Below are positions 29,434 to 49,512 of a DNA stretch of 49,512 bases, in pieces. A program made the translations under genes and the position numbers. The notes beneath the pieces were generated by a model, which worked only from the letters and a program-made list of their open reading frames with translations, did not search any database and was not told the DNA's origin. The stretch's first letter is position 1; every line of letters starts with the position of its first letter. The stretch covers positions 1-49,512 of the forward strand of contig JAQTOZ010000001.1 in NCBI GenBank assembly GCA_028713205.1, written 5' to 3'. The DNA is from Candidatus Omnitrophota bacterium (lineage in GTDB: Bacteria; Omnitrophota; Omnitrophia; Omnitrophales; Aquincolibacteriaceae).

Positions 29434-31104
<1,671 letters not shown>

Positions 31105-31251: not shown

Positions 31252-31260
31252 AGTGGGATA

Positions 31261-32178: not shown

Positions 32179-32185
32179 AGATTTC

Positions 32186-32764: not shown

Positions 32765-32817
32765 GAATGCTTAAGTCCTGATCCTGCGATGATTCGAAAC
32801 CGGGTTCGGTATTGGTA

Positions 32818-33951
32818 TTATTTGTAAATCCGCGGCAAGGTCGGAATCAACCGTGTCACGATTTCATAGGGAATGGTACCGGCCCACTGGGCAAGGTCTT
32901 CAGCGCGGATTTTTTCTTTTTGATCTTGGCCGATGAGCGTGACCTCGTCACCGATGCGTGCCGCCGTTTCGCCAAGATCGATCGTCAAGTAATCCATGGA
33001 GACTCTACCTGCCAGCGGATAACGTTTTCCATGGTAGAGCACATAGGCTTTATTGGATGCCGTAAACGGGTAGCCGTGGCTGTAGCCGATCGGGAGAACG
33101 GCAATATTGGTCGGTGCTTTGGCGATGTAACTGCGCCCGTATCCTGCCGATTCTTCGGCCTGCAATTGTTTTAAAGAAATGATCCGGGTTTTAAGAGACA
33201 GCACGGGTTTGACCTGCGCCATGTGAGTTAATGATTTATCAGGATAAAGGCCATAAAGCATGATCCCCGGACGAATAAGATTGATGACCGGATGAGGCCC
33301 TTTGAGAATGCCGGCACTGTTGGGTGCGTGACGGTACCGGAAAGTAATGCCTTGTTTGTACAGTGTCTCGACCAGCTGGGAAAAATGGATCAGCTGTCGG
33401 TCTCTGAAGCCATCGTCAAGTTCGGCTGTCGGGAAATGCGTATAAAGCCCCTCGACCTTGATGCCGTCCAATTTGGCTATTTTTTCGATGGTCAGTAACG
33501 CCTGCCGGTAAGGAATCCCGAGCCGGCCCATGCCGGTGTCCACTTTAATATGAACCGTTGTTTTTCGTGACAGCGTTTCGGACAATTCAGAAATTTCAAA
33601 GGCTTCTTCAAAACTTGAAACGGTAAGTACAATGCCGTTCATGAGGGCGGCGGGGAGCTCCGGCCGCAAAAGCCTTCCGAAGATAAAAACGGGTTTTTCG
33701 ATTTGATGCTCTTTGAGCGCTAAAGCGTCCTGAAGCGAAGAGACCCCGAAATATTCGACTTCAGACGCCACGGTCTTCGCGACCTCGATCAAACCGTGGC
33801 CGTATGCGTTGGCCTTAACGATGGCCATGGCGCTGTTGGGAAAACCGAAAGCCTTTTTAAGCGTTCGCAAATTATGCAGAAGATGATCGAGGTGGATTTC
33901 CACCCAGGTGGTGTAATGTGATGTTTGAACGGATTCGATTACCGGCAACAT
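32818..33951 (-). CDS. alr: Alanine racemase
   Basis: AIVKANAYGHG PLP-lysine motif and C-terminal beta-domain motifs (YGRSY, GRVSMD). Confidence 0.9.
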   Translation of the reverse strand: MLPVIESVQTSHYTTWVEIHLDHLLHNLRTLKKAFGFPNSAMAIVKANAYGHGLIEVAKTVASEVEYFGVSSLQDALALKEHQIEKPVFIFGRLLRPELPAALMNGIVLTVSSFEEAFEISELSETLSRKTTVHIKVDTGMGRLGIPYRQALLTIEKIAKLDGIKVEGLYTHFPTAELDDGFRDRQLIHFSQLVETLYKQGITFRYRHAPNSAGILKGPHPVINLIRPGIMLYGLYPDKSLTHMAQVKPVLSLKTRIISLKQLQAEESAGYGRSYIAKAPTNIAVLPIGYSHGYPFTASNKAYVLYHGKRYPLAGRVSMDYLTIDLGETAARIGDEVTLIGQDQKEKIRAEDLAQWAGTIPYEIVTRLIPTLPRIYK

Positions 33952-34670
33952 AATTTCCTCTCTCTTCTTCTTTCTTCGGCTTCCGAGAGACGAAAGTAAA
34001 GCGGAGAAAAATCTTTCGGTTTTTCCAATTTGTGAAGTTTTGCGTTTTGTTCCTCGAACCAGCCGGTCAAAGTGGCGGCCCTTGGATACCAGAGGCTTTC
34101 GGGAAGAAACTCGCGCTGCCCGGGTTTGGCTCGCCTTAGAATTTCATCACCGTAACGGGCAATGGCATCCCCAGCGATGACAACCTTTTCCGGCAATTCC
34201 GCCATCAAATCCGGGACGGTGTAAACACCCGCCTTCGTCAACGGCTTCCATTGGCGGGCTTCGTATCGGTAAAACCGGCTATAAATTCTTTCGCGTTTTG
34301 CATCCAGGCAAACCGCAAGTTCCGAACCCTCGGGTAATGTAATGTGTCCGGCAATCATATCCAGGCTGAGCGCTCCAAAACAAGGTTTTTTCGCAAGGGA
34401 GAGAAACCCCTTGAGCGTCGAAAAACCAACGCGCAATCCCGTGAAGGACCCCGGCCCGATTCCGATCAAAAAAGCATCAATATCGTGAATCGTGACCCTC
34501 TTTTGTTTGAGCAAACGGCCAATCATCGGAAGAATGTTTTCGGCGTGCTGGTGGAATCCGACAAGCTTCGCTTCGCAAATGCCGCCGCCTTCCGTTTTCA
34601 GGGCAATGCTTAAAACAGGGCTTGAGGTTTCGATCGCGAGTGAGTTTGCCATGATTTTTTTCGTGAACAA
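33939..34670 (-). CDS. tsaB: tRNA t6A biosynthesis protein TsaB
   Basis: LAIETSSPVLSIAL..., GIGPGSFTGLRVG motif. Overlaps alr by 13 nt. The start may be at the internal MANSL (34652). Confidence 0.85.
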   Translation of the reverse strand: MFTKKIMANSLAIETSSPVLSIALKTEGGGICEAKLVGFHQHAENILPMIGRLLKQKRVTIHDIDAFLIGIGPGSFTGLRVGFSTLKGFLSLAKKPCFGALSLDMIAGHITLPEGSELAVCLDAKRERIYSRFYRYEARQWKPLTKAGVYTVPDLMAELPEKVVIAGDAIARYGDEILRRAKPGQREFLPESLWYPRAATLTGWFEEQNAKLHKLEKPKDFSPLYFRLSEAEERRRERKLCCR

Positions 34671-35186
34671 TCACTATTGTATGAATCGTGTCCAAGAATG
34701 CACGATAAATTTTCACGAATTTTCATCGCGCCGGATTTTCGACGGGATTTTTGAAATGTTGCGGAAGCCGGCAAGAGGGAGATCCGGAAAAGAATTCCGA
34801 GGGAGACCCGGCAGGGGCACTCCCTCCTGTCTTGCGGGAAGGAAAATTCAGTCGATGTGACCGGCGCTTGAAGTTTTAATCCCGCGCATCAAAAATAATG
34901 TATTTTGGGAGGGGTGTTTTGCGCCGAAAAGACGGTTCTTTCGTAAAAGCAGAACGCGGAAACGTCTGATTGCAAATATCATGTTTTGGCAAAAACAAAT
35001 TGCCGCCATTTCACCCCTTTTTAGGGCAAAAAACGGCGTCCTTTTTACTCCAAATTGATACCCCGTTCGCATAGCAACTTTTCGACAGTCATTTCGTGTT
35101 TTTAAAAAATGATTCAAAATATCGTATCCCTTTCAATGGCAATGTTTTAAGCTTATAGAATTTGCTTTATAAAGTAGGTGGTTGCC

Positions 35187-35215
35187 TTGACATGCATGCA
35201 TATGCCATATAAATT
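35187..35215 (+). promoter_or_regulatory. Candidate sigma-70-like promoter for the giant ORF
   Basis: Perfect TTGACA at 35187-35192, followed by TATAAA/ATAAAT/TAAATT candidates at 15-17 nt spacing in a very AT-rich stretch ~95-120 nt upstream of ATG 35308. Confidence 0.35.
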
Positions 35216-35307
35216 TTAAATGTAATTAAAAAGTTTATAAAAATGTATATGTTTGTTTGGCGGTGGAGGCGCAAATCTTAGGATGAAAGGTAAAGTCAGT
35301 AGTTAAT

Positions 35308-35397
35308 ATGACAAGATCGAAATATAACAAAATTCTAGCGTTCTTGTTAAGTATTACTCTCAGCTTCTTTTCTGTCCCCGTCTGTCCAGCAGGTGCA
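35308..35397 (+). other. Sec-type signal peptide of the giant protein
   Basis: MTRSKYNKILAFLLSITLSFFSVPVCPAGA / NVDD: a basic n-region, hydrophobic core, and small residues (A-G-A) before the likely cleavage site. Confidence 0.7.
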
Positions 35398-38300
35398 AAC
35401 GTTGACGACAGGGGATCCTTAAGTTCAGTACCCGGGAGTGCCCCCGTTCCCACAACGCCTATACTTCCGGGTGGATCCCCTGTTCCTCAAACGCCAGAAA
35501 GTCCCCAATTACCGGTTAGTGATGGAATGTTCTCAGAGCAATTCGGTGATTGGGGGACCCCTCAACCGATGCAAGATGAAGAAGACCTGAAAACTGAGGA
35601 AGAAAAACAGGAATTGAAAGAAGCCGTAGAAGAAAAGCAGCCCGCCGCGGAACTCGCGACAGAAGAAAAGGAAGAGGAGAAGAATTATACCGAGTCTGAG
35701 AGAACGGCGGAAGGTCGAGTCCAGTTCGGATCGGCGATTAACATGAATGACGCTACGTTTGAGGTAATTGATGTGTCGCCGGAGGGAATCGAAGAGATCA
35801 AAGAAAATCTGGAGGCATTCCGTTCCTATGAAGATGCCGAACAGGTTTTTGCTTGCGTCGATGACGGTGGCAGCATGGAATGTTTTTACGGCACGAGCGG
35901 CGAAGAGGAAAACGCGCATTTCCACCAAATGATCTCCGAGTATTTAAGCGATAAGACGACGCTGTTTGTGCTTCACAATCACCCATATGACAACGAGGGG
36001 TTGCCCACGCCCAGCGATACGGATTATCAACTCGCCGTCCAAGGGGATTTGTGGGAGGCGGTGGGCAATGTGAATGGCTGGGAAAAATACGGCCATGACG
36101 GAGATCAGGGAGAGATTGCCGATGAAACGATTATTGAAAGGCTCAAGGAACTGATGGCTGTTTACGGTCAGACGAAAGATCCTCTTGCGGCAAAAGAGAC
36201 ACGAAATGAACTCAACGGACTTTTGACTTATGTGGACCAATTCCGGGAGCTTCAGAAAACCCTGGGTGAAACGGAACCGGGAGTCGTTTACCGCGCGGCC
36301 GAGAAACCGGTGGCCCAAGATCAATACGTTACGATGAAGGAAGATGCGATTCAAACCGGACAGTTGACCGCGACGGGTTCCGGGATATTGACTTATTATT
36401 TGAGTCAGGGGCCGCAACACGGAACGGTCACGGTGGATCCTAACGGATCCTATGTGTATCAGCCGGACGCGAATTATAACGGCACCGATGCTTTTAGTTT
36501 CGTGGCGAAAAACAATTTGGGATTCGGGTCAACGATCGAAGATTTTAAAACCAATTTGTCCAATCCGAACGGTTTGGAATTTGACTACGAGCACGGCTGG
36601 GTTTATTGGTGCGAAACGGGGAGCGGATCAATCAAGCGGGCAAGAATCGACGGTACGGGGAGCGTGACGACCCTGGCGTCCGTAGGCGGTATTCCTGCGG
36701 ACCTCAAACTGGATCTGGCAAATGGGAAGATTTATTGGCGTGATACCGCCATGAAAGCGATACGGCGCATCAATATCGACGGAAGCGGCACGGCCGCAAC
36801 GGTCGTCGGCCCTTCGCAAATATCGGATATCCGTGAAATCCAGTTGGATGTACAAGGGGGCCGGATTTATTGGTCCGATTACGGCAGTTATAATGGAATA
36901 CGCTCCTGCAGATTAGACGGTACCGATGTTCGAACGATTTTGTCGGGCTTCAAAGCGTTTTCGTTTACCTTGGATGTCCCCAACGGAAAAATTTATTACC
37001 AAAAATTCACGCGCTGGGGCGATCCGATGCCCTTGATGCGGTCCAACCTGAACGGTACCGTATCGGAAACGGTATTGAGCACGATGCCGTCGTCTTCGGG
37101 CATGACGATCTCGGACGGATATATTTATTGGTCGGGCAGTTATGTGGATGACAACGCCGTGCAACGGGTCAAGTTAAGCTCTGCCAATCCTGCCAATATC
37201 GAAACGGTGGTGAGAAGCGTCATGGGATGTTTGGCCGACAGCCTTTGGCTGGATAGCCGGAACGGTTACCTGTATTGGACGGATACTCTCACCGGCAAGA
37301 TCAAACGTGTTTCTTTCGGTACGGTTTCGAATCCGGCAACGGTGACCATGAATATAGCTCCGGTCAATGATGCTCCGGTAGCGCGCGCCGATAACTATGC
37401 GGTCAATGAAGATGCCAATGGCGGGCTTGTGACAGGTTCGGCCAACGGCGTTCTGGCGAATGACACAAATCCGGACGGGCATGCGCTTGCGGTTCAGTTG
37501 GCTTCGGGCCCCTCCCACGGGACACTTCAATTGAATAGCGACGGTACTTTTACCTATGTCCCCAACACCCATTTCTACGGCACGGATACATTTCAGTATT
37601 ATGCGTCATATGAGGCATACGGTACGCCCCAGGATCTTACGAGGTGGTCATCAACGAGTGCCAATGATCTGGTTGTCGCGAATGGGAAAATGTATACCTT
37701 CGACGGACAAAACGGGTCCATTACCGTGGCCAATATCAATGGTTCAGGGAGAACGACCCTGATTTCTTCTTCGGCCTTGGGAGGTAAAGCCGTTTACAAC
37801 CTGGCGGTTGATCAAGTCAACGGCAAAATTTATTGGATCGATAGCAGCAATAAAATCAGGTGGGCGAATTTGGACGGTTCCGGTGTTGCGAATCTCCCGG
37901 TTACGATCTCCGCAACCAATATCTCGAAAGCGCAACTCAAAATCGATACGGTCAATCAGAAAATCTTGTGGACGAGCACCAATTATATTTACTGCGCGAA
38001 CCTGAACGGCACCGGTCAGAGAGCCCTCGGTTACACGCTCTCGCCGTATCCGATCGAGTCGTTGGCGATTGACGCACAAAATAACAAACTCTATTGGAGC
38101 GGACATTCCAATTTTCAAGATACATTCCCGGGGACTAATTTGTTCCGCGTGAACCTGAGCAATCTCTACAGCGGTACCGTGGTTGAGGAAGTGGTTGTGA
38201 AAAATGTTGAGGCGAAAAGCATCGAAATTGCCGGCGGCAAGCTTTATTACACGACTTGGGAAAATGGCACTCAATCCGGTAGTTCGGTCAAGCGTGTGGA

Positions 38301-41300
38301 CAGTCTTGCTGCGACCAATCTCCTGGATAGCGATACCGTTACGGTTGTTTCCCATGCGACGGGTGTTTCGGGCCAGCGGACGATCAAAGGGGACATTCAG
38401 GCGGCCAGTGACGGCACCGTCTATTGGCTCGAACAGGAAGCCGCGGGGTCGTCGCCGACTGTGATTCGGAAAGTTTCTTGTCCGGCCCGCACCGATCCGG
38501 CAACGGTTACCATTGATATAGCTCCGGTCAATGATGCGCCGGTTGCGACACCTCCCGCCGTGGGTGTGGTTCTTGCGGTCGGGACAAACATAACTCTTGG
38601 GGGAAGCGATGTGGATGGGGATATGCTTTCCTATGTGATTGTTGCCGGGCAGACGAGCGGGCGTACCGGCCATGGAACGTGGCAGCAATATGATCCTAGC
38701 GATTCAAGCAAGATCCGGTATGTCCCGGACGCCAATTATGAAGGCGCGGATTCTTTTACCTACAAGGTTTGGGACGGCAAAGCGTATTCGGCGGTTGTGA
38801 CGGTGAATTTCACGGTCGATGCCGTATGTCCCGTCATTCGAATCACAAGTTCGAATGAGATCAACCAACCGGGGACCTATGTTCTTACATTTATGGTGGA
38901 CGGGGTTGCGGAAAGTGCCAGCGGTGATGCACTCAGAGCCTTGCGCTTACCGCCGGGTAATTTGACGGAGGGATATAACGATTTTCAGATTGTGCGCCGT
39001 GACGTGGCCGGCAATGAAACGAGATTAACGTTCAGAATAACAGTGGATACGGTACCGCCGACGGTGACGGTGAGCGGGATTGTCAATGATTCGGTGGTGA
39101 ATTCAAGAGATGCGACGCTTACGATGGGCGGAGACGGTGTCGTTGCCTACAAGATCATCAAGTTCGATACCTGGGACTGGTCAGACGGCGGGCTGGTGAG
39201 TCAGCCTTATTATTTTCGCAATCTTTCCGAAGGCCGGCATTCGGTTTCGGTGATCGGCAAAGATGCAATCGGGAATTGGCAGACAACGCCGACCGTCATC
39301 ACGTGGACGGTGGATACGGTACCGCCGACGGTGACGGTAAGCGGGATTGTCAATAATTCGGTGGTGAATTCAAAGGATGCGACGATCACGATGGGCGGTG
39401 TCGGGGTCGTGGCATATAAAATTAAATGGAATGATTGGCCGGATTATCTCGATGGCGGATTGGTGTCTCAGCCATATCATTTTTATAATCTCCCCGAAGG
39501 CAGGAATACGATTTCGGTCATAGGAAAAGACGCCGCGGGGAACTGGCAGACAACGCCGACGGTTATCAATTGGACGGTGGATACGGTACCGCCGACGGCT
39601 GTGATCAGCGGAGCACCTCCGGCACAGACAACCGTTACCGACGCGACGCTGACGATCAGCGGTGATCAGGTCACCGCTTATAAATTTAAGTTGGATAGCG
39701 GAAATTATTCCGCCGAGACGGCGGCAGGGACTCCGATTACTTTGCATGGCCTCTCAGAAGGTCAGCATGCTGTCAGCGTTCTTGCCCGGGATGCAGCCGG
39801 TAACTGGCAGGCGGCCCCGACACAAGTGTCCTGGACGATTTTACCGCGGGAACGGGTCGTTCAAACTTTACCGTCCGTCGGATCCGATGGCGGGGTTCAG
39901 AGAGTGATTGTCGCCGAAATTTATGATGCAGCGGGAGCTAAAACCTATTCTGCGAGAGTGCAAAAACAAAATGCGGACGGAAGTTATCAAACCCTGCGTG
40001 AGTATGCGATCGCCAGTTACGGAGCGATCCAAGTGGTTGATACGACCTGGCAAAAGACGAGCTATTTTGTCGCAACGGCGACCGACGGCCGCAACTTGAC
40101 CTTCGGCTATTTGGAACCGAAACCGTCCGGGACAAAAAATTCATTTGAAGATGTGGATGGCCGCATGATTTACCGGAGCGGCCAGATTACGATCGGCTAT
40201 GCCGGCGGCGAGAATTTTATGGCCGATCTATCGGGTGCGGTTCCGTATGCAAAGATAACCCATTCAAACGGTCAGAGCGGCAGTCAATACCGGGATGTCG
40301 CCGTATACCATTACACGCAAACAGCTCCGGCCGGAAAGAAGCTGTTGTTTCAATATCAAGACGGGCCTGCCTCGAGCAATTGGAGTCCGATCTACAACGT
40401 CTATGGAATTCTTGAGCTTTCCGCGAAGGCTGATCCGTTGGTGGGAGATGAAAATATTCCCGTGACCGGCAAGATCACGGTGACGGATCCGGATGGTGAC
40501 AATATTACCTACACCCTTTTGTCGAATCCTGCGCACGGTACCGTGACGTTTGATGCGGCGGGGAATTACACCTTTAACCCCACAGCACACTGGTATGGTT
40601 CGGACACATTTCAGGTGAGGGTGAGTGACGGGAAGGCGACCTTGACGGTCAAGATCCCGGTGACGATTAATATGAAGGCGAATCCTCCGGCGATTGTCAC
40701 GATCCCGAATCAGAATGTCAACGAAGGAAGCACGCTCAATGTCAATATCAACGCAAGTTCGCAGGAACCGGGCGCCAGCGGGCTGAACGTCAGTGCGGTG
40801 ATGGTCAACGCCAGCGGCCAGGAAGTGGTTTTGCCGAATTGGATGCAATTGGTGACGAATGCGGACGGGACAAAGAAATTAGCGGTGACGCCCGGCCATG
40901 ATGCGTCGGGGACTTATAAACTTCGCGTAAAAGCGCAGGATACGGCGGGACAAGCGCAAGTCGATTTTACGTTGACGATTAACAATGTTGCCGTGCCGCC
41001 GGTGATGACGCCGGTTACGGAGAAGAATACCAACGAAGGGACCGAGTTATCCATCGGATTGACGGCCCTGTCCCGTGATCCCAATGCGGGTGATTTGATA
41101 TTCAATGCGGTATTATTGGACGCCAACGGGCAGGAAATTCCGTTGCCCGATTGGCTGAATTTTTCGAAGCTTGCCTCCCGCAATCCCCGAACCGGGGAGA
41201 TCACATGGTATTTGATCGCAGCTCCCGGTCATGATGCGTCGGGGACATACCGGATCCGTGCGAAAGCGACCGATTTGGCCGGAGAAGCACAGACCGATTT

Positions 41301-44300
41301 TACACTGACTATTAATAATGTAGCCGTTCCGCCGGTGATGACGCCGATTCCCGATCAGAATATAAGTGAAGGCACTACGTTGGATGTGAATATCAGCGCG
41401 CAATCGCAAGATCCCGGTGCCGGAGAGCTGACCGTGAGTGCGGTGATGTTAAATGAGCAAGGTCAGGAAGTGGCTTTGCCGGGCTGGATGCAAGTGTCTT
41501 CGAATGCGGATGGGAGCTGGGAATTAGTCGTCAGTCCGGGGCATAACGATGCGGGGTCCTATTCCATTCGCGTGAAAGCAACGGATTTGGCCGGTGAAGC
41601 GCAAACAGAGTTTGCGTTGACGGTCAATGATGTCGTCAACACTCCCGTTGCGGACCCTCTGACGGTGACGATCAACGAAGACTCTCCTTACACGGGTCAA
41701 TTGACGGGCACCGGAGAGAACCTCACTTTCCATCTTGCCCAGCCGCCGGCGCATGGAACCGTCGTGCTGAATTTGGACGGGACGTTTACCTATACGCCGG
41801 CCGGTGATTACAGCGGCGATGATACGTTTACCTATTATGCGGAAACCGGCTCGGTGGAGGGCCCCGAAAATTTTGCGGATGCTTTTACGAATCCGGCACA
41901 TCCGATTGTGAATCCTGCCGACGGATTTACTTATTGGGTGGAGAACGGTCAGGCCCTGATGCGAAAGAAAAGCGACGGGACCGGAAGCGTTGAAGAAGTG
42001 TTCCGTTTCCCTTACGGTGCTTACCAGGAAATGTCGGAGATTACACTGGATACCGGGCGGGGAAGAATTTATTACACGGACAATACCGGCTATGGCATGG
42101 GCATCTTAAAATGGCTCGACCTGAGTGACAACAGCCTCCATGTGTTGTCGACTCAGAGCGGATTGAAATCGCAGCTGACCTATGACGCGGCCAACAATCA
42201 GGTCTTATGGTACGACGCGGGCGGTGGCCGCATTCGCGGAATTAGCGTGGATGATCCGGACGGTCCTGTGAGGACCATTATTGATTGGTCTTACAATGCC
42301 GGTGTGGGACATACCTATGCGATCGGCGGCGGGAAAATTTATTGGCAAACGGTCGGCGATGAAAATGTGAAGCTCAAATGCGCGAATTTGACGGGGCCCT
42401 TCCCGATACCGGATTCGCAGCATACGGTTTTATTGAATTCCGTACATTTTGCCAGCAGCATGGCGGTGGATGCCGAAGGAGGGAAGGTTTATTGGATGCA
42501 CGGACACGATCAATCCATCCAGCGTTTAACGCTCAACGGCGGAAATGTGGAAACGGTGGTCCCGAGTCTGAGCCCCTATTCCTATACCATGCTGAATCTT
42601 TCATTTGATGAAACGAACGGCGATCTTTATTGGGCGAATACCACGGGGCATCCGACCATTCAACGGGCCGGAACCATTCCTCCGTCTGCTCCGGCCGCGG
42701 CAACGTTCCATGTGACACAGGTGCCCGATGCGCCGGTGATCACGCCGGTGGATCCGCAAACCGTCGATGAAAATCAGACGTTGCAATTTACGGTCCATGC
42801 CAGCGATCCTGATCAAGGGGACGTCCTGAGTTTCTCGGTCGAGCATATGCCGGACGGAGCGATGTTTGATCCGGCGACCGGGGTTTTTACCTGGCAACCC
42901 GGGGCCGATGCCGGCCGTACGGATCCGTATATCGTTCATTTGATCGTGACGGACCAAGATGGGCTTATCAGTACGATCGATGTGCGCATTACGGTCAATA
43001 ATGTGAACCAAACGCCTGTTGCCGATGCGAAACAGGTCGAAGGAACGGAAGATGTTTCTCAGGTGATTGTGCTATCGGGGACGGATGATGACGGTGATGA
43101 TTTGACATATGAGATCGTAGGAGGTCCCGGGCATGGGACGCTGAGCTGTGACGGAAATCGTTGCACGTACACCCCGGCGGCAAATTATAACGGGCATGAT
43201 TCTTTTACTTACCGTGTTTACGACGGTACGGAATATTCCGAAATTGCGGCGGTGGATATCGATCTGGTCGCAGTCAATGATGCGCCGGTGGCGCGGGATG
43301 CCGAGGGCACGGCGGACGAGGATAACGAATTCGTTTACCGGTTGAGTGATTTGATCAGTGATATTGATACGGCGATGAGCGGTTTGAGAATTTTCGGCGC
43401 GAGTCAGCCTATGCACGGCGGCATCATCATCGATTACGATAACGGCGAGTTTATTTATGTGCCGGATGAAAACTGGCATGGCACCGAGGTTTTTCAGTAT
43501 ATCGTCACGGACGGAGAGAAGACCTCGCAGATCAAACAAATTGTCATTCATGTGGCGAGTGTCAATGACACCCCGGAGGCAAACGCCGTGAGTGCGGAGA
43601 CAAATGAAGATGCTGTCTTGACGGGGCAGTTGACGGCAGAGGATGTCGATGGTGACGCTTTGACCTATTCATTGGTAGGTCAATCCGAGCATGGGACGGT
43701 GGTGGTCAATGCGGACGGCAGTTACGCGTATACGCCTGCAGCAAATTACAACGGGACGGATAGTTTCACGTTTAAGGTCAATGACGGAACGGTTGATTCC
43801 GAGGCGGTCACGGTGTCGCTCACGATCAAGTCCGTCAATGATGTCCCTGCGGGGAACCCGATGGATGCCGAGACGGACGAAGATGGGCAAGTCACGGGTC
43901 AGCTGACGGCGAGCGATCCTGAAGGGGATGCATTGACGTATTCTTTGGTGGGGCAGGCGGCCCATGGGACGGTGGTGGTCAATGCGGACGGCAGTTACAC
44001 GTATACGCCCGCAGCCAATTACAATGGGACGGACTTTTTTGCGTTTATCGTCAATGACGGTAAAGCCAATTCGGAGCCGGTAACTGTGTCGTTGACCGTG
44101 AAATCGGTCAATGATGCCCCTGTGGCGGATGCCGTCAATGAAGCGACCGATGAAGACGAAGCGATCACGGGGCAATTGACCGCGACGGACATTGATGAAG
44201 ACACTCTTACCTATCTGTTAGTCGCGCAGGCCGGGCATGGGACGGTGGTGATTCATCCGGACGGCAGTTACACCTACACGCCGGTAACCGATTTCAGCGG

Positions 44301-47300
44301 GGCGGATAGCTTCACGTTTAAGGTCAATGACGGTAAGACGGATTCGGCCGAAGTGACGGTCCATATCCGGATCGATGCGGTCAATGATGCGCCGGTTGTG
44401 CAGGACCGCGAGGTAACGATCGGTGAAGATGGGGATGTCTTCTTTGAACTTAGTACGCTTGTTTCGGATGTGGACAGCGCTGCCGGGGATTTCATTTATC
44501 TTATGGCCAAAGGGCCGGAGCATGGCGGTATCGCATGGGACACGGAAACCGGAAGTATTGTCTATGTCCCCGATGCGGACTGGAACGGGACAGATAGTTT
44601 TACATTTTATGTGTCCGATGGGGATAAAATTTCAAGGGAAGCACGATTTACGGTCAAAATCGATGCGGTCAATGATGCGCCGGTAGCCGATGGGGGCAGC
44701 GCCGAAACGGATGAAGATGCGGTGTTGACGGGCCAACTGACCGCGAGTGATGTTGAAGGCGATGCCTTGACGTATTCTTTGGTAGGGCAGGCGGCGCATG
44801 GGACGGTGGTGGTCAATGCGGACGGCAGTTACACGTATACGCCGGTAACAAATTTCAACGGGACGGATAGTTTCACGTTTAAGGTCAATGACGGAACGGT
44901 TGATTCCGAAGCGGTCACGGTATCGCTCACGATCAAGTCGGTTAACGATGCTCCGGTGATGACGCCGATTGAAGATCAGGAAGTGGATGAAAACGGGACG
45001 GTGCGTTTTACCGTGGAGGCCCAGGATGAGGACGGAAGCGCATTGACGCTTTCGGCGCTGGATATGCCTGAAGGTGCGGCATTTGATTTTGCAACGGGCG
45101 TGTTTAGCTGGAAGCCCGGGTATGAACAGGCGGGTACTTATACCGTCCGGTTCAGAGTGACGGACGGTGAATTGGCGGCTGATATTGATGTCAACATTAC
45201 GGTGAATAATGTGAACCGTGCTCCGGTGATCACGCCGGTGGATCCTCAGGTTGTGGATGAAAACTCGGACCTTGATTTTACGGTGAGTGCGAACGATCCC
45301 GACGGCGGGGCATTGACACTCTCAGCGTTTGATTTGCCTGAAGGTGCGACGTTTGATTCTGCGACGGGCGTGTTTAGCTGGAAGCCCGGTTACAATCAAG
45401 CCGGAACTTATACGGTGAAGTTCAGAGTTACAGACGGGGATTTAACGGATGAAATCTCAGTTGAGATCACAGTCAATAATGTGAACCGGCCTCCGGTGAT
45501 TACGCCGATTGAAGATCAGGAAGTGGATGAAAACGGGACGGTGAGATTTACCGTGGAAGCCCAGGATGAGGACGGAAGCGCATTGACGCTTTCGGCGCTG
45601 GATATGCCTGAGGGTGCGGCGTTTGATTTTGCAACGGGCGTGTTTAGCTGGAAGCCCGGGTATGAACAGGCGGGTACTTATACCGTCCGGTTCAGAGTGA
45701 CGGACGGTGAATTGGCGGCTGAGATGAATGTCAACATTACGGTGAATAATGTGAATCGTCCCCCGGTGATTACACCGATTGAAGATCAGGAAGTCAGTGA
45801 GAATAGTCCTGTGACATTTACGGTGTCGGGGACAGATCCCGACCAGGGCACGCAGCTGACGTTCTCGGCGCTTGATTTGCCGGAAGGCGCAACATTTGAT
45901 TCTGCGACGGGCGTATTCAACTGGACGCCGGGTTTTGAGGCAGCGGGAGAATACACACTGACCTTCAAGATCAGCGATGGCGAAGCGGAAGTGACGGAAA
46001 CAGTCAAGATCACGGTCGAGAATGTCAACCGGATACCGGTGGTCGGTACGCAGCAAGTGGAAGGCGCAGAGGATACCGTACAGTCCATTGTGTTATCGGG
46101 AACGGACAGCGACGGGGATACGTTGACCTATGAAATCGTCGGAAATCCGGAGCATGGGACGCTCAGTTGCGACGGGAACCGTTGCACCTACACGCCTGCG
46201 GCAAATTACAACGGTCATGATTCGTTTACATTCCGGGCCTTCGACGGTACGGATTATTCCGAGCCCGCAGCAATTGATTTGAATCTGACGGCAGTCAACG
46301 ATGCGCCTGTGGCGAACGACGTGGAAGTTTCGGTGAATGAAGATACGGATTTGATTTATCAACTCAGCGACATGGTCGGCGACATCGATACGGAGATGGC
46401 GGGACTGCATTTGTATTTTGCGAACCAACCGGAGCATGGCGGGATCGTCGTGGATTATGACTCGGGCGAGTTTATTTATGTTCCGGATGCGGACTGGATC
46501 GGGACGGAAGTGATCCGGTATGTGGCTTCGGACGGCGATAAAACGTCGGAGGAACGGCAGATCGTTATTCATGTCGCGAATGTCAACGATGCGCCCGTGA
46601 TCACGCCGATACCGGATCAGACGGTGGCTGAGGACGGCACGTTGACGTTTACGGTCGGCGTGTCCGATTCCGATGAGGGTGATCCGCTGACATTATCGAT
46701 TGAGGGTTTGCCGGCAGGAGCAACTTTTGATGTCGGGACAAAGACTTTCAGCTGGCAGCCCGGCTATGATCAAGCAGGGACATATACGGTTAGGATTCGC
46801 GCGACGGACGGAGATTTGACCGATGAGATTGACGTCAATATCACGGTCAATAATGTGAACCGTGCACCGGTGATTACGCCGGTTGATCCGCAAGTGGTGG
46901 ATGAAGACTCAGACCTTAATTTTACGGTCAGCGCAAATGATCCCGACGGCGGGGTGTTGACACTCTCAGCGCTTGATTTGCCGGAAGGCGCGGCCTTTGA
47001 TCCCGCGACGGGAGTATTCAGCTGGAAACCCGGATACAATCAGGCCGGCAGTCACACCGTCCGGTTTCAAGTCACCGACGGTGATTTGACGAGTGAGATC
47101 TCGGTTGAGATCACGGTCCATAATGTGAACCGGCCGCCTGAAGCCCAAGCGCAGCAAGTGGAAGGGGCAGAGGATGCTCCTCAAGTGATTGTGTTATCGG
47201 GGAGCGATAACGATCAGGATCACCTGACCTATGAAATCGTCGACGGACCGGAGCATGGGGCCATAAACTGTGATGGCAATCGTTGCACCTACACCCCGGC

Positions 47301-49512
47301 AACGAATTATAACGGGCCTGATTCATTTACATTCCGGGTTTATGACGGTGAAGATTATTCGGAGGCTGCGACGATCGATTTGGACCTGGTCGCGATCAAT
47401 GACGCACCGGTGGCACAAGATGTGGAAGCGACAATGGACGAGGATACGGATTTCATTTTTTCGTTGAGCGACATGGTCGGCGACATCGATACGGAGATGG
47501 CGGGACTGCATTTGTATTTTGCGAACCAACCGGAGCATGGCGGGATCATCGTGGACTATGATTCGGGCGAGTTCATTTATGTTCCGGATGCGGATTGGAA
47601 CGGGACGGAAGTGATCCGGTATGTGGTTTCGGACGGCGATAAAACGTCGGAGGAGCGGCAGATCGTTATTCATGTCGCGAATGTCAACGATGCCCCGGAG
47701 GCGGATGCCGTCAGTGCGGAGACGAATGAAGATGCGGTATTGACGGGGCAGTTGACGGGAACCGATGCGGATGGAAATGCATTGTCGTACGCATTGGTGG
47801 GCCAAGCGGCGCATGGGGTGGTGGTCATGAATGCGGACGGAAGCTATACGTATACTCCGGCGGCAAATTTCAACGGGACGGACAGTTTTACGTTTAAGGT
47901 CAATGACGGGACGGTCGATTCCGGGACGGTCACGGTTTCTCTGACGATCCAATCCGTGAACGATGCTCCGGTGATGACACCCATTGAGGACCGGGAAGTG
48001 AACGAAGACGGAACGGTGAGTTTTACCGTCGAAGCCGATGACATCGATGAAGATTCGTTATCATTATCGGCGCTTGATTTGCCTGCGGGTGCGACGTTTG
48101 ATTCTGAGACAGGTGTGTTTAGCTGGAAGCCCGGCTATGATCAGGCAGGGACCTACGCCCTCCGATTCAAAGTAAACGACGGCCATTTGAATGTGACCCA
48201 GGATGTGATCATTACGGTCAATAATGTGAACCGTGCACCGGTGATCACGCCAGTTGATCCGCAAGTGGTGGATGAAGACTCAGCCCTTAATTTTACGGTA
48301 AGCGCCAATGATCCCGACGGCGGGGCGTTGACACTCTCAGCGCTTGATTTGCCGGAAGGCGCGGCCTTTGATCCGGCGACGGGCGTGTTTAGCTGGAAGC
48401 CCGGATACAATCAAGCCGGAACTTATACGGTGAAATTCCGTGTGACCGATGGTGATTTAACGGGTGAGATCTCGGTTGAGATTACGGTCCATAATGTGAA
48501 CCGCGCACCCGTGATTACGCCGGTTGACCCTCAGATGGTGGACGAAGACTCGGACCTTAATTTTACGGTGAGCGTGAACGATCCCGATGGCGGGGCGCTG
48601 ACCCTATCTGCGCTTGATTTGCCGGAAGGCGCGGCCTTTGATCCGGCGACGGGCGTGTTTAGCTGGAAGCCCGGGTATGATCAGGCCGGAACTTATACGG
48701 TGAAGTTCCGCGTCACGGACGGTGATTTAACGGGTGAGCTTGAAGTCGAGATCACGGTCAATAATGTGAATCGTGTTCCGGTTGCTCACGATATTGAAGT
48801 GACCGTTAACGAAGATCAAACTCTGGCGTTTGATTTACCGGAAGGGTTTGATTTGGACGGGGATCAATTAATGTATTTGCTTGTCAGCGGTCCCGGACAC
48901 GGCGGGATTACCTTTGCGGAACCGGAGAATGAACCTTATACGCGAAAGATGCTCTATATTCCTGATGAAAATTTTGAAGGAACGGATACGTTCACTTTCG
49001 AGATTTATGACGGTCAAGAGTTATCGAATACGGCAACGGTGACAATCAGGGTCAATGGGCTGAACGATGCCCCCATGATTCAGCCGGTTGAACCGCAAAC
49101 AGTTCATGAGGACAGTGACTTACATTTTGCGATTCACACAACCGATCCCGACCTGGGAGATCTTTTAACCTTGTCCGCGCTTGATTTGCCGGATGGCGCG
49201 GCCTTTGATCCGGCGACGGGCGTGTTTAGCTGGAAGCCCGGGTATGAACAGTCCGGAACTTATACGGTGAAGTTTCGAGTCACGGATGGTGATTTGACGG
49301 ATGAAATTGAAGTTGAGATCACGGTCAATAATGTGAACCGTGCACCGGTGATCACGCCGGTTGATCCGCAAGTGGTGGATGAAGACTCAGACCTTAATTT
49401 TACGGTGAGCGCGAATGATCCCGACGGAGGGGCGTTGACACTCTCAGCGCTTGATTTGCCGGAAGGCGCGGCCTTTGATCCGGCGACGGGCGTGTTCGGC
49501 TGGAAGCCCGGT
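35308..49512 (+). CDS. Giant secreted multi-domain surface/adhesin-like protein, 3'-partial (>=4735 codons, no stop in window)
   Basis: Frame +1 coincides with every 60-nt line start. It has an in-frame TGA at 35284-35286, ATG at 35308, and no stop through 49512 in my line-by-line translation. The ORF track contains no frame +1 ORF anywhere in 35.3-49.5 kb, as expected for one ORF lacking a stop. The translation gives coherent domains (signal peptide, JAB-like, YWTD blades, VNDAP- and He_PIG-type modules). Confidence 0.88.
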   Translation, partial: MTRSKYNKILAFLLSITLSFFSVPVCPAGANVDDRGSLSSVPGSAPVPTTPILPGGSPVPQTPESPQLPVSDGMFSEQFGDWGTPQPMQDEEDLKTEEEKQELKEAVEEKQPAAELATEEKEEEKNYTESERTAEGRVQFGSAINMNDATFEVIDVSPEGIEEIKENLEAFRSYEDAEQVFACVDDGGSMECFYGTSGEEENAHFHQMISEYLSDKTTLFVLHNHPYDNEGLPTPSDTDYQLAVQGDLWEAVGNVNGWEKYGHDGDQGEIADETIIERLKELMAVYGQTKDPLAAKETRNELNGLLTYVDQFRELQKTLGETEPGVVYRAAEKPVAQDQYVTMKEDAIQTGQLTATGSGILTYYLSQGPQHGTVTVDPNGSYVYQPDANYNGTDAFSFVAKNNLGFGSTIEDFKTNLSNPNGLEFDYEHGWVYWCETGSGSIKRARIDGTGSVTTLASVGGIPADLKLDLANGKIYWRDTAMKAIRRINIDGSGTAATVVGPSQISDIREIQLDVQGGRIYWSDYGSYNGIRSCRLDGTDVRTILSGFKAFSFTLDVPNGKIYYQKFTRWGDPMPLMRSNLNGTVSETVLSTMPSSSGMTISDGYIYWSGSYVDDNAVQRVKLSSANPANIETVVRSVMGCLADSLWLDSRNGYLYWTDTLTGKIKRVSFGTVSNPATVTMNIAPVNDAPVARADNYAVNEDANGGLVTGSANGVLANDTNPDGHALAVQLASGPSHGTLQLNSDGTFTYVPNTHFYGTDTFQYYASYEAYGTPQDLTRWSSTSANDLVVANGKMYTFDGQNGSITVANINGSGRTTLISSSALGGKAVYNLAVDQVNGKIYWIDSSNKIRWANLDGSGVANLPVTISATNISKAQLKIDTVNQKILWTSTNYIYCANLNGTGQRALGYTLSPYPIESLAIDAQNNKLYWSGHSNFQDTFPGTNLFRVNLSNLYSGTVVEEVVVKNVEAKSIEIAGGKLYYTTWENGTQSGSSVKRVDSLAATNLLDSDTVTVVSHATGVSGQRTIKGDIQAASDGTVYWLEQEAAGSSPTVIRKVSCPARTDPATVTIDIAPVNDAPVATPPAVGVVLAVGTNITLGGSDVDGDMLSYVIVAGQTSGRTGHGTWQQYDPSDSSKIRYVPDANYEGADSFTYKVWDGKAYSAVVTVNFTVDAVCPVIRITSSNEINQPGTYVLTFMVDGVAESASGDALRALRLPPGNLTEGYNDFQIVRRDVAGNETRLTFRITVDTVPPTVTVSGIVNDSVVNSRDATLTMGGDGVVAYKIIKFDTWDWSDGGLVSQPYYFRNLSEGRHSVSVIGKDAIGNWQTTPTVITWTVDTVPPTVTVSGIVNNSVVNSKDATITMGGVGVVAYKIKWNDWPDYLDGGLVSQPYHFYNLPEGRNTISVIGKDAAGNWQTTPTVINWTVDTVPPTAVISGAPPAQTTVTDATLTISGDQVTAYKFKLDSGNYSAETAAGTPITLHGLSEGQHAVSVLARDAAGNWQAAPTQVSWTILPRERVVQTLPSVGSDGGVQRVIVAEIYDAAGAKTYSARVQKQNADGSYQTLREYAIASYGAIQVVDTTWQKTSYFVATATDGRNLTFGYLEPKPSGTKNSFEDVDGRMIYRSGQITIGYAGGENFMADLSGAVPYAKITHSNGQSGSQYRDVAVYHYTQTAPAGKKLLFQYQDGPASSNWSPIYNVYGILELSAKADPLVGDENIPVTGKITVTDPDGDNITYTLLSNPAHGTVTFDAAGNYTFNPTAHWYGSDTFQVRVSDGKATLTVKIPVTINMKANPPAIVTIPNQNVNEGSTLNVNINASSQEPGASGLNVSAVMVNASGQEVVLPNWMQLVTNADGTKKLAVTPGHDASGTYKLRVKAQDTAGQAQVDFTLTINNVAVPPVMTPVTEKNTNEGTELSIGLTALSRDPNAGDLIFNAVLLDANGQEIPLPDWLNFSKLASRNPRTGEITWYLIAAPGHDASGTYRIRAKATDLAGEAQTDFTLTINNVAVPPVMTPIPDQNISEGTTLDVNISAQSQDPGAGELTVSAVMLNEQGQEVALPGWMQVSSNADGSWELVVSPGHNDAGSYSIRVKATDLAGEAQTEFALTVNDVVNTPVADPLTVTINEDSPYTGQLTGTGENLTFHLAQPPAHGTVVLNLDGTFTYTPAGDYSGDDTFTYYAETGSVEGPENFADAFTNPAHPIVNPADGFTYWVENGQALMRKKSDGTGSVEEVFRFPYGAYQEMSEITLDTGRGRIYYTDNTGYGMGILKWLDLSDNSLHVLSTQSGLKSQLTYDAANNQVLWYDAGGGRIRGISVDDPDGPVRTIIDWSYNAGVGHTYAIGGGKIYWQTVGDENVKLKCANLTGPFPIPDSQHTVLLNSVHFASSMAVDAEGGKVYWMHGHDQSIQRLTLNGGNVETVVPSLSPYSYTMLNLSFDETNGDLYWANTTGHPTIQRAGTIPPSAPAAATFHVTQVPDAPVITPVDPQTVDENQTLQFTVHASDPDQGDVLSFSVEHMPDGAMFDPATGVFTWQPGADAGRTDPYIVHLIVTDQDGLISTIDVRITVNNVNQTPVADAKQVEGTEDVSQVIVLSGTDDDGDDLTYEIVGGPGHGTLSCDGNRCTYTPAANYNGHDSFTYRVYDGTEYSEIAAVDIDLVAVNDAPVARDAEGTADEDNEFVYRLSDLISDIDTAMSGLRIFGASQPMHGGIIIDYDNGEFIYVPDENWHGTEVFQYIVTDGEKTSQIKQIVIHVASVNDTPEANAVSAETNEDAVLTGQLTAEDVDGDALTYSLVGQSEHGTVVVNADGSYAYTPAANYNGTDSFTFKVNDGTVDSEAVTVSLTIKSVNDVPAGNPMDAETDEDGQVTGQLTASDPEGDALTYSLVGQAAHGTVVVNADGSYTYTPAANYNGTDFFAFIVNDGKANSEPVTVSLTVKSVNDAPVADAVNEATDEDEAITGQLTATDIDEDTLTYLLVAQAGHGTVVIHPDGSYTYTPVTDFSGADSFTFKVNDGKTDSAEVTVHIRIDAVNDAPVVQDREVTIGEDGDVFFELSTLVSDVDSAAGDFIYLMAKGPEHGGIAWDTETGSIVYVPDADWNGTDSFTFYVSDGDKISREARFTVKIDAVNDAPVADGGSAETDEDAVLTGQLTASDVEGDALTYSLVGQAAHGTVVVNADGSYTYTPVTNFNGTDSFTFKVNDGTVDSEAVTVSLTIKSVNDAPVMTPIEDQEVDENGTVRFTVEAQDEDGSALTLSALDMPEGAAFDFATGVFSWKPGYEQAGTYTVRFRVTDGELAADIDVNITVNNVNRAPVITPVDPQVVDENSDLDFTVSANDPDGGALTLSAFDLPEGATFDSATGVFSWKPGYNQAGTYTVKFRVTDGDLTDEISVEITVNNVNRPPVITPIEDQEVDENGTVRFTVEAQDEDGSALTLSALDMPEGAAFDFATGVFSWKPGYEQAGTYTVRFRVTDGELAAEMNVNITVNNVNRPPVITPIEDQEVSENSPVTFTVSGTDPDQGTQLTFSALDLPEGATFDSATGVFNWTPGFEAAGEYTLTFKISDGEAEVTETVKITVENVNRIPVVGTQQVEGAEDTVQSIVLSGTDSDGDTLTYEIVGNPEHGTLSCDGNRCTYTPAANYNGHDSFTFRAFDGTDYSEPAAIDLNLTAVNDAPVANDVEVSVNEDTDLIYQLSDMVGDIDTEMAGLHLYFANQPEHGGIVVDYDSGEFIYVPDADWIGTEVIRYVASDGDKTSEERQIVIHVANVNDAPVITPIPDQTVAEDGTLTFTVGVSDSDEGDPLTLSIEGLPAGATFDVGTKTFSWQPGYDQAGTYTVRIRATDGDLTDEIDVNITVNNVNRAPVITPVDPQVVDEDSDLNFTVSANDPDGGVLTLSALDLPEGAAFDPATGVFSWKPGYNQAGSHTVRFQVTDGDLTSEISVEITVHNVNRPPEAQAQQVEGAEDAPQVIVLSGSDNDQDHLTYEIVDGPEHGAINCDGNRCTYTPATNYNGPDSFTFRVYDGEDYSEAATIDLDLVAINDAPVAQDVEATMDEDTDFIFSLSDMVGDIDTEMAGLHLYFANQPEHGGIIVDYDSGEFIYVPDADWNGTEVIRYVVSDGDKTSEERQIVIHVANVNDAPEADAVSAETNEDAVLTGQLTGTDADGNALSYALVGQAAHGVVVMNADGSYTYTPAANFNGTDSFTFKVNDGTVDSGTVTVSLTIQSVNDAPVMTPIEDREVNEDGTVSFTVEADDIDEDSLSLSALDLPAGATFDSETGVFSWKPGYDQAGTYALRFKVNDGHLNVTQDVIITVNNVNRAPVITPVDPQVVDEDSALNFTVSANDPDGGALTLSALDLPEGAAFDPATGVFSWKPGYNQAGTYTVKFRVTDGDLTGEISVEITVHNVNRAPVITPVDPQMVDEDSDLNFTVSVNDPDGGALTLSALDLPEGAAFDPATGVFSWKPGYDQAGTYTVKFRVTDGDLTGELEVEITVNNVNRVPVAHDIEVTVNEDQTLAFDLPEGFDLDGDQLMYLLVSGPGHGGITFAEPENEPYTRKMLYIPDENFEGTDTFTFEIYDGQELSNTATVTIRVNGLNDAPMIQPVEPQTVHEDSDLHFAIHTTDPDLGDLLTLSALDLPDGAAFDPATGVFSWKPGYEQSGTYTVKFRVTDGDLTDEIEVEITVNNVNRAPVITPVDPQVVDEDSDLNFTVSANDPDGGALTLSALDLPEGAAFDPATGVFGWKPG
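35701..36180 (+). other. RadC-like JAB/MPN metallopeptidase-like domain inside the giant protein
   Basis: ...EQVFACVDDGGSMECFYGTSGEEENAHFHQMISEYLSDKTTLFVLHNHPYDNEGLPTPSDTDYQLAV... This compares with the RadC/JAMM signature HNHPSGxxxPSxxD (HxH...S..D). Confidence 0.6.
36565..37320 (+). repeat. YWTD (LDL-receptor class B type) six-bladed beta-propeller 1
   Basis: Six ~40-aa blades centred on GWVYWCE, GKIYWRD, GRIYWSD, GKIYYQK, GYIYWSG, GYLYWTD. Each is followed by an x-I-x-R-x-x-L/I-D/N-G-S/T strand. Confidence 0.65.
37660..38478 (+). repeat. YWTD-type six-bladed beta-propeller 2
   Basis: Blades centred on GKMYTFD, GKIYWID, QKILWTS, NKLYWSG, GKLYYTT, GTVYWLE. Confidence 0.6.
39043..39840 (+). 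repeat. Three tandem 267-bp (89-aa) Ig-like repeats starting VDTVPPT
   Basis: gtggatacggtaccgccgacgg recurs at 39043, 39310 and 39577, an exact 267-bp period. Each unit ends ...GNWQTTPTVI(T/N)WTVDT. Confidence 0.8.
40684..41640 (+). repeat. Three tandem He_PIG/dystroglycan-type cadherin-like modules (105-112 aa variant)
   Basis: Units PPAIVTIPNQNVNEGSTL..., PPVMTPVTEKNTNEGTEL..., PPVMTPIPDQNISEGTTL... Each contains GQE(V/I)xLPxW(M/L) and ends GHDASGTYxxRxKAxDxAGxAQxxFTLT(I/V)N. Confidence 0.7.
41905..42672 (+). repeat. YWTD-type six-bladed beta-propeller 3
   Basis: Blades centred on GFTYWVE, GRIYYTD, NQVLWYD, GKIYWQT, GKVYWMH, GDLYWAN. Confidence 0.6.
42720..49512 (+). repeat. Array of ~25 tandem 90-95-aa modules: ~12 He_PIG-type (NVNRxPVITP...) and ~13 VNDAP-type Ig/cadherin-like ('tandem-95'/Big_9-like)
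   Basis: Module boundaries are marked by recurring ...ITVNNVNR(A/P)PVITP... and ...(K/D)(S/A)VNDAP(V/E)A... every ~270-285 bp. Order read from translation: A, B x7, A x4, B x2, A x2, B x3, A x3, B, A, A(partial). Confidence 0.8.

Follow-up and report, generated by a model that had tools for sequence, protein, structure and literature searches.

A giant secreted repeat protein of an Omnitrophota bacterium with YWTD propellers and a putative JAB-like N-terminal head

The last 14.2 kb of a 49,512-nucleotide stretch of DNA from a Candidatus Omnitrophota bacterium (GenBank assembly GCA_028713205.1, contig JAQTOZ010000001.1, positions 1 to 49,512; the stretch is the entire contig and is referred to here as the window) are occupied by a single open reading frame (ORF) that runs off the contig end. 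On balance we favor the view that these 14.2 kb are the 5' part of a chromosomal gene for a giant Sec-exported adhesion fiber with a JAB-like hydrolase domain as its head. Members of the Omnitrophota, which are ultra-small and uncultured, are thought to live on other cells. The new part of the present finding is an undescribed, secreted, N-terminal JAB-like head on an Omnitrophota fiber otherwise made of conventional immunoglobulin (Ig)-like and YWTD modules. Because known adhesion and ligand-binding folds account for ~90% of its length, the protein is unusually interpretable for the phylum and allows a concrete model of attachment, and its small (~210-aa), expressible and very rare head with an intact JAMM-type metal site would, if it is an active enzyme, offer a handle on how such a fiber acts on target cells.

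Re-translation of the window gave, in frame +1, an in-frame TGA at 35284-35286, an ATG at 35308 and then 14,205 nt, or 4,735 codons, without a stop or an N up to 49512, in agreement with a preliminary description of this DNA that had proposed a stop-free frame from 35308 for a protein of at least 4735 aa leaving the window at its end. The chance of frame +1 staying free of stops over 35308-49512 is ~10^-98.6 at the regional base composition, and the other five frames hold 65-296 stops over the same interval. Moreover, Pfam matches tile the frame from ~aa 340 to its end (Big_9 in 32 stretches, Cadherin_4 in 30, Cadherin_5 in 28, He_PIG in 15 and PKD_4 in 9), and frame +1 is therefore a genuine coding sequence and not an ORF open by chance. 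The giant ORF is thus confirmed as a real gene for a secreted protein of at least 4,735 aa that runs off the contig end. It had been presented as missing from the ORF track, but it is not a missing gene: the track does not show it because frames that run off the end of the source are left out by the ORF lister, and GenBank already lists its product under MDD5216495.1 ("MAG: Ig-like domain-containing protein, partial", where MAG is metagenome-assembled genome; 4,648 aa, starting at Met88).

The start of the gene was called differently by three gene callers, at ATG 35308, at 35344 (Logan) and at Met88 (35569; Prokaryotic Genome Annotation Pipeline), and since only ATG 35308 keeps the signal peptide that is conserved in homologs, the GenBank protein is probably N-terminally short by 87 aa. 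From ATG 35308 the product opens with a Sec-type signal peptide recognized by hydropathy and by comparison with homologs (aa 1-30, 35308..35397; this and all further features of the gene are on the plus strand), which reads MTRSKYNK-ILAFLLSITLSFFSVPV-CPAGA and is followed by NV; cleavage is predicted at this junction, with AGA at -3 to -1. Residues 7-30 form the sole stretch with a Kyte-Doolittle value above 1.6 in the 4,735 aa, and the earlier claim that the protein is secreted is borne out. The n/h/c layout and the (V/I)P motif of the signal peptide, together with a basic n-region and an AxA-like site, recur in four homologs of the head that are described below (P0002, P0003, P0004 and P0006). 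We rejected the alternative of a lipoprotein anchored through Cys26, as the lipobox consensus has Gly, Ala or Ser at -1 whereas 'VPVC' has Val, and the homologs lack the Cys. A low-complexity linker follows (aa 31-125, 35398..35682), and its composition, Pro-rich at aa ~40-72 and then Glu/Lys-rich at aa ~88-125, is read directly in the sequence as had been described; the homologs have comparable linkers of 60-100 aa between signal peptide and head.

The head itself (aa 126-335, 35683..36312), delimited with its phmmer family and an alignment of four members (alignment A1), comprises an N-terminal beta-alpha unit, a JAB/MPN-like core and two long helices. Word-indexed homology searches with the head (aa 1-350) and with A1 gave no matches, and pattern scans with A1 of the GTDB species representatives and of JGI metagenomes found no further members. 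An exhaustive phmmer search of 1.84 billion representative proteins returned six matches, of which five are real members, including the giant protein itself; the sixth, P0005, was discarded as a repeat-protein false positive. The remaining four are P0002 (1,461 aa, partial, E 1.3e-18), P0003 (3,773 aa, complete, E 2.7e-11), P0004 (1,572 aa, complete, E 6.9e-10) and P0006 (849 aa, on a 2.8-kb JGI contig, E 1e-4), the last having a head that is rearranged or degenerate. All real members are long secreted proteins that bear the head at the N-terminus, after a signal peptide and a low-complexity linker, and the stalks behind it are unrelated.

The closest homolog of the head, P0002 (34% identity), is encoded on contig JAQUML010000024.1 of GCA_028718145.1 (locus L003, 10001-14384), and because its accessions, MDD5217443.1 and MDD5670542.1, fall in the same two series as those of the window proteins, it is most likely a paralog from the same genome. 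Its stalk is wholly different, with ~130-aa beta-rich repeats and a C-terminal array of 'ASPVNADGS..TKYTKQK', and it too runs off its contig. Neither end of the two complete relatives, P0003 and P0004, bears a transmembrane (TM) anchor, and dockerin/EF-hand-like motifs occur close to the C-terminus of P0003. We also observed that the P0004 and P0003 genes adjoin efp in two metagenome contigs from neighboring Sequence Read Archive (SRA) runs (locus L004, 561-9422 and 10001-14719; locus L002, 2283-13604). In L004 a second giant gene lies just upstream of the head-bearing gene, with a CopG-like gene between them; its product of 2,953 aa has a signal peptide, no head, and four dockerin/EF-hand-like motifs at the C-terminus. 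In P0006 the segment 'AVYVTSGD..VRAHE' has moved behind the WEAxG region and HNH is replaced by 'HKD', so that this head is either degenerate, permuted, or the product of misassembly.

Sequence comparison and structure modeling make it likely that the head is a divergent JAB/MPN+ domain. The four heads in A1 are 28-34% identical, and their invariant residues include E53, H98, N99, H100 and D114 of the alignment, which correspond to E178, H223, N224, H225 and D239 of the giant protein. With S236, which is present in three of the four heads, these residues make up a JAMM signature E…HxH…SxxD (E178, H223-N-H225, S236-D-T-D239). RadC is the only family that the head matched in either library, as PF04002 in Pfam (E 0.12-0.25, 11.7-12.8 bits, in two of the four members) and as PRK00024 in NCBIfam (E 0.11). 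When A1 was compared by hhalign with the sequence of the RadC structure 2QLC (P 4.6e-4, probability 33%), SG…H…LFVLHNHP…PSDTD of the head was paired with IG…H…IILVHNHPSGD…PSNAD of RadC, which centers the similarity on the active-site segment; the score was 29.4, whereas shuffled RadC sequences averaged 12.1 ± 2.3 and reached 25.1 at most, and none of 400 shuffles scored as high.

The structure predictions, though weak, are concordant with this. An AF2 model of the head built on the four-sequence alignment, of low confidence (predicted local distance difference test, pLDDT, 58; predicted TM-score, pTM, 0.54), puts HNH where a strand ends and SxxD where the following helix begins. In a Foldseek search of the PDB with this model, ~20 of the top 25 matches were MPN proteins, among them Rpn8, Rpn11, CSN5, CSN6, eIF3f, CBASS Cap3 and the Prp8 Jab1 domain, none of them with E<=1e-3; in BFVD the best match had E 1.4e-3 (prob 0.99), and the top named matches were an "MPN domain-containing protein", three "RadC DNA repair proteins" and a phage "Protease". 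A search of the PDB sequences with the A1 profile gave matches at chance level only (a 23S rRNA methyltransferase, E 0.26). The possibility of an HNH endonuclease was rejected: 'HNH' is contiguous here, as in the 'HNHP' of RadC, and not spread over a beta-beta-alpha-Me motif, and no HNH family matched. The preliminary description had called the head a RadC-like JAB domain, and this is plausible in that several weak RadC and MPN signals concur, although each of them individually lies below threshold; because the formal family thresholds were missed, we do not file the head as a member of the RadC family.

A number of points weigh against an adhesion fiber with a JAB-like hydrolase at its head, and most of them concern the head. 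The JAB assignment is below significance in every single test: the RadC match does not reach the PF04002 gathering score of 22.1, the hhalign probability is the 33% given above, Foldseek gave no E below 1.4e-3, and the pLDDT of the model is low. The spacing from HxH to S is 10 residues in the giant protein and in P0002 as opposed to 7 in a canonical JAMM motif, P0004 lacks the motif Ser and P0006 lacks HxH, and "invariant" is a weak statistic because there are only four good head sequences. To our knowledge, no JAB enzyme has an established substrate outside the cell. As for the fiber, adhesion is deduced from domain types alone, either end could be the cell-proximal one, and the C-terminal half is supported by one short-read contig.

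Several of the same points would also suit a head that is not an enzyme, namely a globular cap, either a pseudo-enzyme of MPN-like fold or an unrelated alpha/beta fold, that acts as a folding nucleus, a secretion or retention plug, or a binding module in a protein that is purely an adhesin. The low confidence of the model, the sub-threshold database matches, the non-canonical motif spacing, the degenerate motif of P0006 and the loss of the Ser in P0004 would all fit such a cap, as would the fact that many eukaryotic MPN domains, including Rpn8 and CSN6, which are the best PDB matches, are non-catalytic scaffolds. However, four heads that have diverged to 28-34% identity all keep the E, both H and the D, which argues for selection on a metal site, and the hhalign similarity falls exactly on the active-site segment. 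We regard a non-catalytic cap as unlikely. Were the head nonetheless inactive, the locus would be another large Ig-repeat adhesin.

A divergent JAB hydrolase, as we prefer to read the head, would share with the RadC-like clade (PF04002; 2QLC) the E...HxH...SxxD pattern, an identical 'HNHP' core and the predicted order of a strand with HxH and a helix with SxxD. It would differ in features specific to its own family, namely the additional N-terminal beta-alpha unit, a 3-residue insertion in the metal-site loop between HxH and SxxD, and two long C-terminal helices in which WE(A/V)xG…GW..Y is conserved, and further in being secreted and N-terminal. RadC and other prokaryotic JABs are intracellular, with the exception of Tox-JAB-1 and Tox-JAB-2, which are C-terminal toxin domains of polymorphic toxins (Zhang et al., PMC3482391).

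This exception raises the question of whether the head might be a JAB toxin, as has been proposed for the RadC clade and for Tox-JAB-1/2, possibly a nuclease, carried to prey by a delivery fiber resembling a polymorphic toxin. Polymorphic-toxin modules are the only secreted prokaryotic JABs described earlier (PMC3482391), the Omnitrophota have been proposed to be predators or parasites, and the occurrence of the head on different stalks in paralogs implies modularity. On the other hand, the head is N-terminal where polymorphic toxin domains are C-terminal, the protein has no RHS, HINT or pre-toxin modules, and DUF4329/Tox-JAB-2 gave no match to the head at E<=10. Nor is there an adjacent immunity candidate on the upstream side, which is taken by the divergent tsaB, the downstream side lying beyond the contig. 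A toxin head is, in our judgment, very improbable. A more far-reaching form of the hydrolase reading, in which the heads would constitute an undescribed clade of extracellular JAB/MPN+ zinc hydrolases, the first extracellular JAMM role other than that of toxins, with the nested YWTD propellers as lateral receptors that position the head, is possible, and we put it forward with some doubt. If it were true and the JAB active, a family known almost exclusively from intracellular ubiquitin-like processing and from toxin tips would be extended to cell-surface biology.

Behind the head, the frame contains 18 YW-type blade motifs in three groups of six, as expected from the three six-bladed YWTD propellers that had been described. 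Propeller 1 (aa 406-673, 36523..37326; blades at aa 430, 473, 518, 560, 604 and 653) matched PF00058 (Ldl_recept_b) with 48.3 bits, where the cut-off is 21, and also passed the cut-offs of DUF5050 and SGL. Its AF2 model, from a 62-sequence alignment, has 24 strands (pLDDT 86.5, pTM 0.86), and the top 50 Foldseek matches in the PDB were all YWTD propellers, of LRP6, LRP4, LDLR, ApoER2, megalin and nidogen, with prob 1.0; superposition gave TM-scores of 0.75-0.78 and, for single-propeller entries, a root-mean-square deviation of ~2.2-2.6 Å. The fold of propeller 1 is thereby confirmed. Propeller 2 (aa 776-1061, 37633..38490; blades at aa 793, 839, 884, 926, 977 and 1036) was recognized by its motifs and is ~30% identical to propeller 1 (alignment A2), and propeller 3 (aa 2196-2459, 41893..42684; blades at aa 2206, 2252, 2297, 2342, 2392 and 2438) by its motifs and a weak Ldl_recept_b match, with 28% identity to propeller 1; from these similarities both appear to share the six-bladed YWTD fold.

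The propellers had been presented as eukaryote-style, but the idea that they are exceptional is not supported, since more than 100 homologs of propeller 1 with PF00058 are mostly proteins of 300-480 aa from prokaryotic metagenomes and MAGs; YWTD propellers are therefore not exotic in bacteria. Some of these homologs carry PEP-CTERM, dockerin, He_PIG, PASTA or type IX secretion system (T9SS) domains. Each propeller of the giant protein is preceded by the A-F strands of a Big_9 module, ending in 'Y.P..NY.G.D.F.Y', and followed by a G-strand-like 'ATVT.(N/D)IAPVNDAP' (36313-37370, 37363-38541 and 41623-42732), and each is thus apparently nested inside a Big_9 module. When the propellers were excised in silico, the Big_9 match extended to 88/89 for propellers 1 and 2 with no gain in score and was unchanged for propeller 3.

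The stalk consists of ~37 Ig-like modules of Big_9/cadherin-like, He_PIG/PKD-like and Big_13-like types, and nearly every item of the domain map proposed earlier was recovered by the Pfam, motif, repeat and fold analyses. Pfam places the N-terminal part of Big_9/cadherin-like module 1 (profile positions 3-77 of 89) at aa 336-405 (36313..36522), before propeller 1. The G-strand-like 'ATVTMNIAPVNDAP' that closes this module and the N-terminal part of Big_9 module 2 occupy aa 674-775 (37327..37632), and the strand that closes module 2 lies in aa 1062-1243 (38491..39036), a stretch that also holds one whole Big_9 module (aa 1074-1170) and a short Ig-like segment resembling HYR/Big_13. The three 'VDTVPPT' repeats of ~89 aa that had been noted are present at aa 1244-1512 (39037..39843), where Tandem Repeats Finder gave a period of 267 nt with 79% matches and Pfam gave Big_13-, Big_3_3- and Y_Y_Y-like matches. 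They are followed by the domain that had been left unassigned at ~200 aa; it measures ~190 aa (aa 1513-1705, 39844..40422) and had no match in Pfam or NCBIfam, and among the PDB sequences only a weak one to the CV39L lectin 6gxs (E 0.014 over 57 residues). A Big_9 module (aa 1706-1794) and the three He_PIG-like modules that had been described, each of ~105 aa (aa 1795-2105; Pfam He_PIG in three stretches, E 4.3e-15), lie together at 40423..41622, and the Big_9 N-terminal part at aa 2106-2195 (41623..41892) leads into propeller 3.

The remainder of the available protein is an array that had been estimated at ~25 modules still running at 49512, and Pfam matches and clustering give exactly 25 (aa 2469-4735, 42712..49512), 24 complete and the last broken off after 60 residues where the contig stops. 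Their order is A B C B B B C B A A A A B C A A B C B A A A D A A, where A is a 90-aa He_PIG/PKD-like module, B a 91-aa Big_9/cadherin-like module, C a 96-aa Big_9 variant and D a divergent module of 98 aa, and VN(D/R)xP linkers recur between them every 90-98 aa. The B-type Big_9 modules contain eight D-x-(D/E/N)-G-D motifs. No LPXTG, RTX (GGxGxD), PEP or RGD motif was found in the available 4,735 aa. As a separate observation, B-type modules 2, 13 and 17 (aa 2614/2619, 3621/3626 and 3988/3993) share a Cys-x4-Cys pair in 'LSCDGNRCTY' or 'INCDGNRCTY' in a protein that is otherwise nearly Cys-free (0.3%), and the pair could be a disulfide or a metal clasp of this module subtype.

Repeats of this kind raise the possibility that the 3' half is an assembly artifact, with Ig-repeat genes collapsed, expanded or joined into a chimera, in which case the real product would be shorter or have its modules in another order. 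The contig breaks off within the most self-similar module type, the last, cut A module being 97% identical in amino acids to modules 16 and 21, and such an end is a typical assembly break. Moreover, aa 2365-4735 are seen on the window contig alone: the second MAG with this gene holds, on a 40,633-bp contig, a 2,278-aa fragment (MDD5670098.1) that is identical to the giant protein over aa 88-2364, and its contig breaks at aa 2365. Against an artifact, independent assemblies agree exactly with the first 7.1 kb, including a Logan assembly of SRR22315508 that is identical to the window over 30866-38560 with 0 mismatches. Further, frame and module phase (90-98 aa) are kept over 6.8 kb with no stop or frameshift, and the longest exact DNA repeat in the gene is 101 nt while module copies are 60-87% identical at the DNA level, so that gross repeat collapse is unlikely, although the copy number of the modules is not guaranteed. 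We accordingly consider an artifactual 3' half improbable. An exact 40-mer from 49093-49132 had no match in genome and metagenome contig collections, so that the 3' end was not recovered; a look-up of the 4,648-aa GenBank product for a longer 3' end returned no record, and a literature search on the accession and run identifiers returned no mention.

Taken as the product of one continuous gene, the protein may be pictured as follows. The cleavable-type signal peptide would export the fiber through Sec, no other hydrophobic segment being present in the first 4,735 aa. The head would then stand at the mature N-terminus, after a flexible linker of ~95 aa, as a divergent JAB/MPN+ (RadC-like) zinc hydrolase, and the propellers, nested in their Big_9 modules, would project sideways from the stalk as ligand-binding knobs. 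Stalk and propellers would together bind the surface of a host or prey cell, or else a matrix, which would fit the symbiotic or predatory lifestyle proposed for the Omnitrophota. The head may trim a peptide or isopeptide substrate on that surface, or it may process the fiber itself, in a parallel to the N-terminal C39/S8 peptidases on other giant Omnitrophota proteins. It would be distal if the fiber were anchored at its C-terminus, an arrangement suggested by the lack of a TM anchor in P0003 and P0004 and by the dockerin/EF-hand-like motifs with which P0003 and the 2,953-aa neighbor of P0004 end. An attachment fiber displaying an enzyme at its tip, as the preliminary description had also imagined it, is a reasonable hypothesis to draw from this domain order.

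Giant ORFs are a recognized trait of the Omnitrophota, and their products have been proposed to attach the bacteria to hosts or prey (Seymour et al. 2023, PMC10066038). West-Roberts et al. distinguished two types of Omnitrophota giants, "Archaeovorin" and "Dockerin-type", with many TM helices, SecA-DEAD and N-terminal C39/S8 peptidases near the signal peptide, the N-terminal part of the Dockerin-type giants being without TM helices (bioRxiv 10.1101/2023.11.21.568195). The claim that the protein as a whole belongs to no described adhesin class is accordingly not supported, giant adhesin-like ORFs being a known hallmark of the phylum (PMC10066038; bioRxiv 10.1101/2023.11.21.568195); the novelty was overstated, and most of the finding is ordinary for the phylum and already annotated in outline. 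JAB, MPN, RadC, LDL and cadherin are mentioned neither in the West-Roberts preprint (bioRxiv 10.1101/2023.11.21.568195) nor in a 2026 Omnitrophota preprint, and 'cadherin', the one word searched for there, does not occur in Seymour et al. (PMC10066038).

The giant protein resembles these Omnitrophota giants in its phylum, in very long extracellular repeats that break short-read assemblies, in a peptidase-type domain near the N-terminal signal peptide and in the attachment role proposed for it, and it resembles the Dockerin-type in an N-terminal portion free of TM helices and in the dockerin/EF-hand-like motifs of its relative P0003. In contrast to both types, its available 4,735 aa contain no SecA-DEAD, no multiple TM helices, no glycoside hydrolase or glycosyltransferase (GH/GT), no dockerin, no TSP3 or discoidin repeats and no beta-helix filaments. 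Its N-terminal enzyme-like domain is JAB-like and not the C39/S8 peptidase of the Archaeovorin type, and none of the marker domains of the >30,000-aa types was found in it.

With giant Ig-repeat adhesins such as SiiE, LapA/LapF and the MpIBP type, the protein shares a stalk of tens of tandem ~90-aa Ig-like modules with ligand-binding domains interspersed, and its eight acidic D-x-(D/E/N)-G-D motifs would be compatible with rigidification by Ca2+. However, SiiE, LapA and MpIBP are substrates of type I secretion systems (T1SS) that lack an N-terminal signal peptide and carry RTX repeats at the C-terminus, whereas the giant protein has a Sec signal peptide and no GGxGxD in 4,735 aa, its true C-terminus lying outside the contig. 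We know of no adhesin of the SiiE, LapA/LapF or MpIBP type with a JAB head or YWTD propellers. The six YW(T/S)D-type blades and the above-threshold PF00058 match are shared with LDLR, LRP4/5/6, megalin, nidogen and bacterial DUF5050 proteins, but in contrast to the animal receptors no EGF family is among the Pfam matches and the propellers are bracketed by, or possibly inserted into, Big_9 modules; the closest sequence relatives of propeller 1 are short prokaryotic single-propeller proteins and not animal receptors. What merits follow-up is the rare family of JAB-like heads and, possibly, the nesting of propellers inside Ig modules.

The rest of the window is ordinary chromosome, with tsaB directly upstream of the giant gene and divergent from it, alr, a biotin/lipoate ligase gene, coaX, two groEL paralogs, rsmB/F, a polysaccharide-biosynthesis cluster, and genes for a GGDEF-EAL regulator, a B12-radical-SAM enzyme and an archaemetzincin-like protease; scans for tRNAs and Rfam families over the window returned nothing. 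The 637-nt AT-rich intergenic region shared with tsaB contains a sigma-70-like promoter match on the plus strand, TTGACA-17-TAAATT (35187..35215), a consensus match only, at 10 of 12 positions, ~90 nt upstream of the start codon. The polysaccharide-biosynthesis cluster is flanked by genes for an archaemetzincin-family metalloprotease-like protein with a ~130-aa N-terminal extension (2662-3609, minus strand), a B12-binding radical SAM enzyme resembling HpnJ/BchE (9363-10748, minus strand) and a response-regulator GGDEF-EAL protein (20086-21741, plus strand). The two GroEL (Cpn60) paralogs are both full-length and are encoded next to each other in tandem on the minus strand, at 27419-29059 and 29434-31089.

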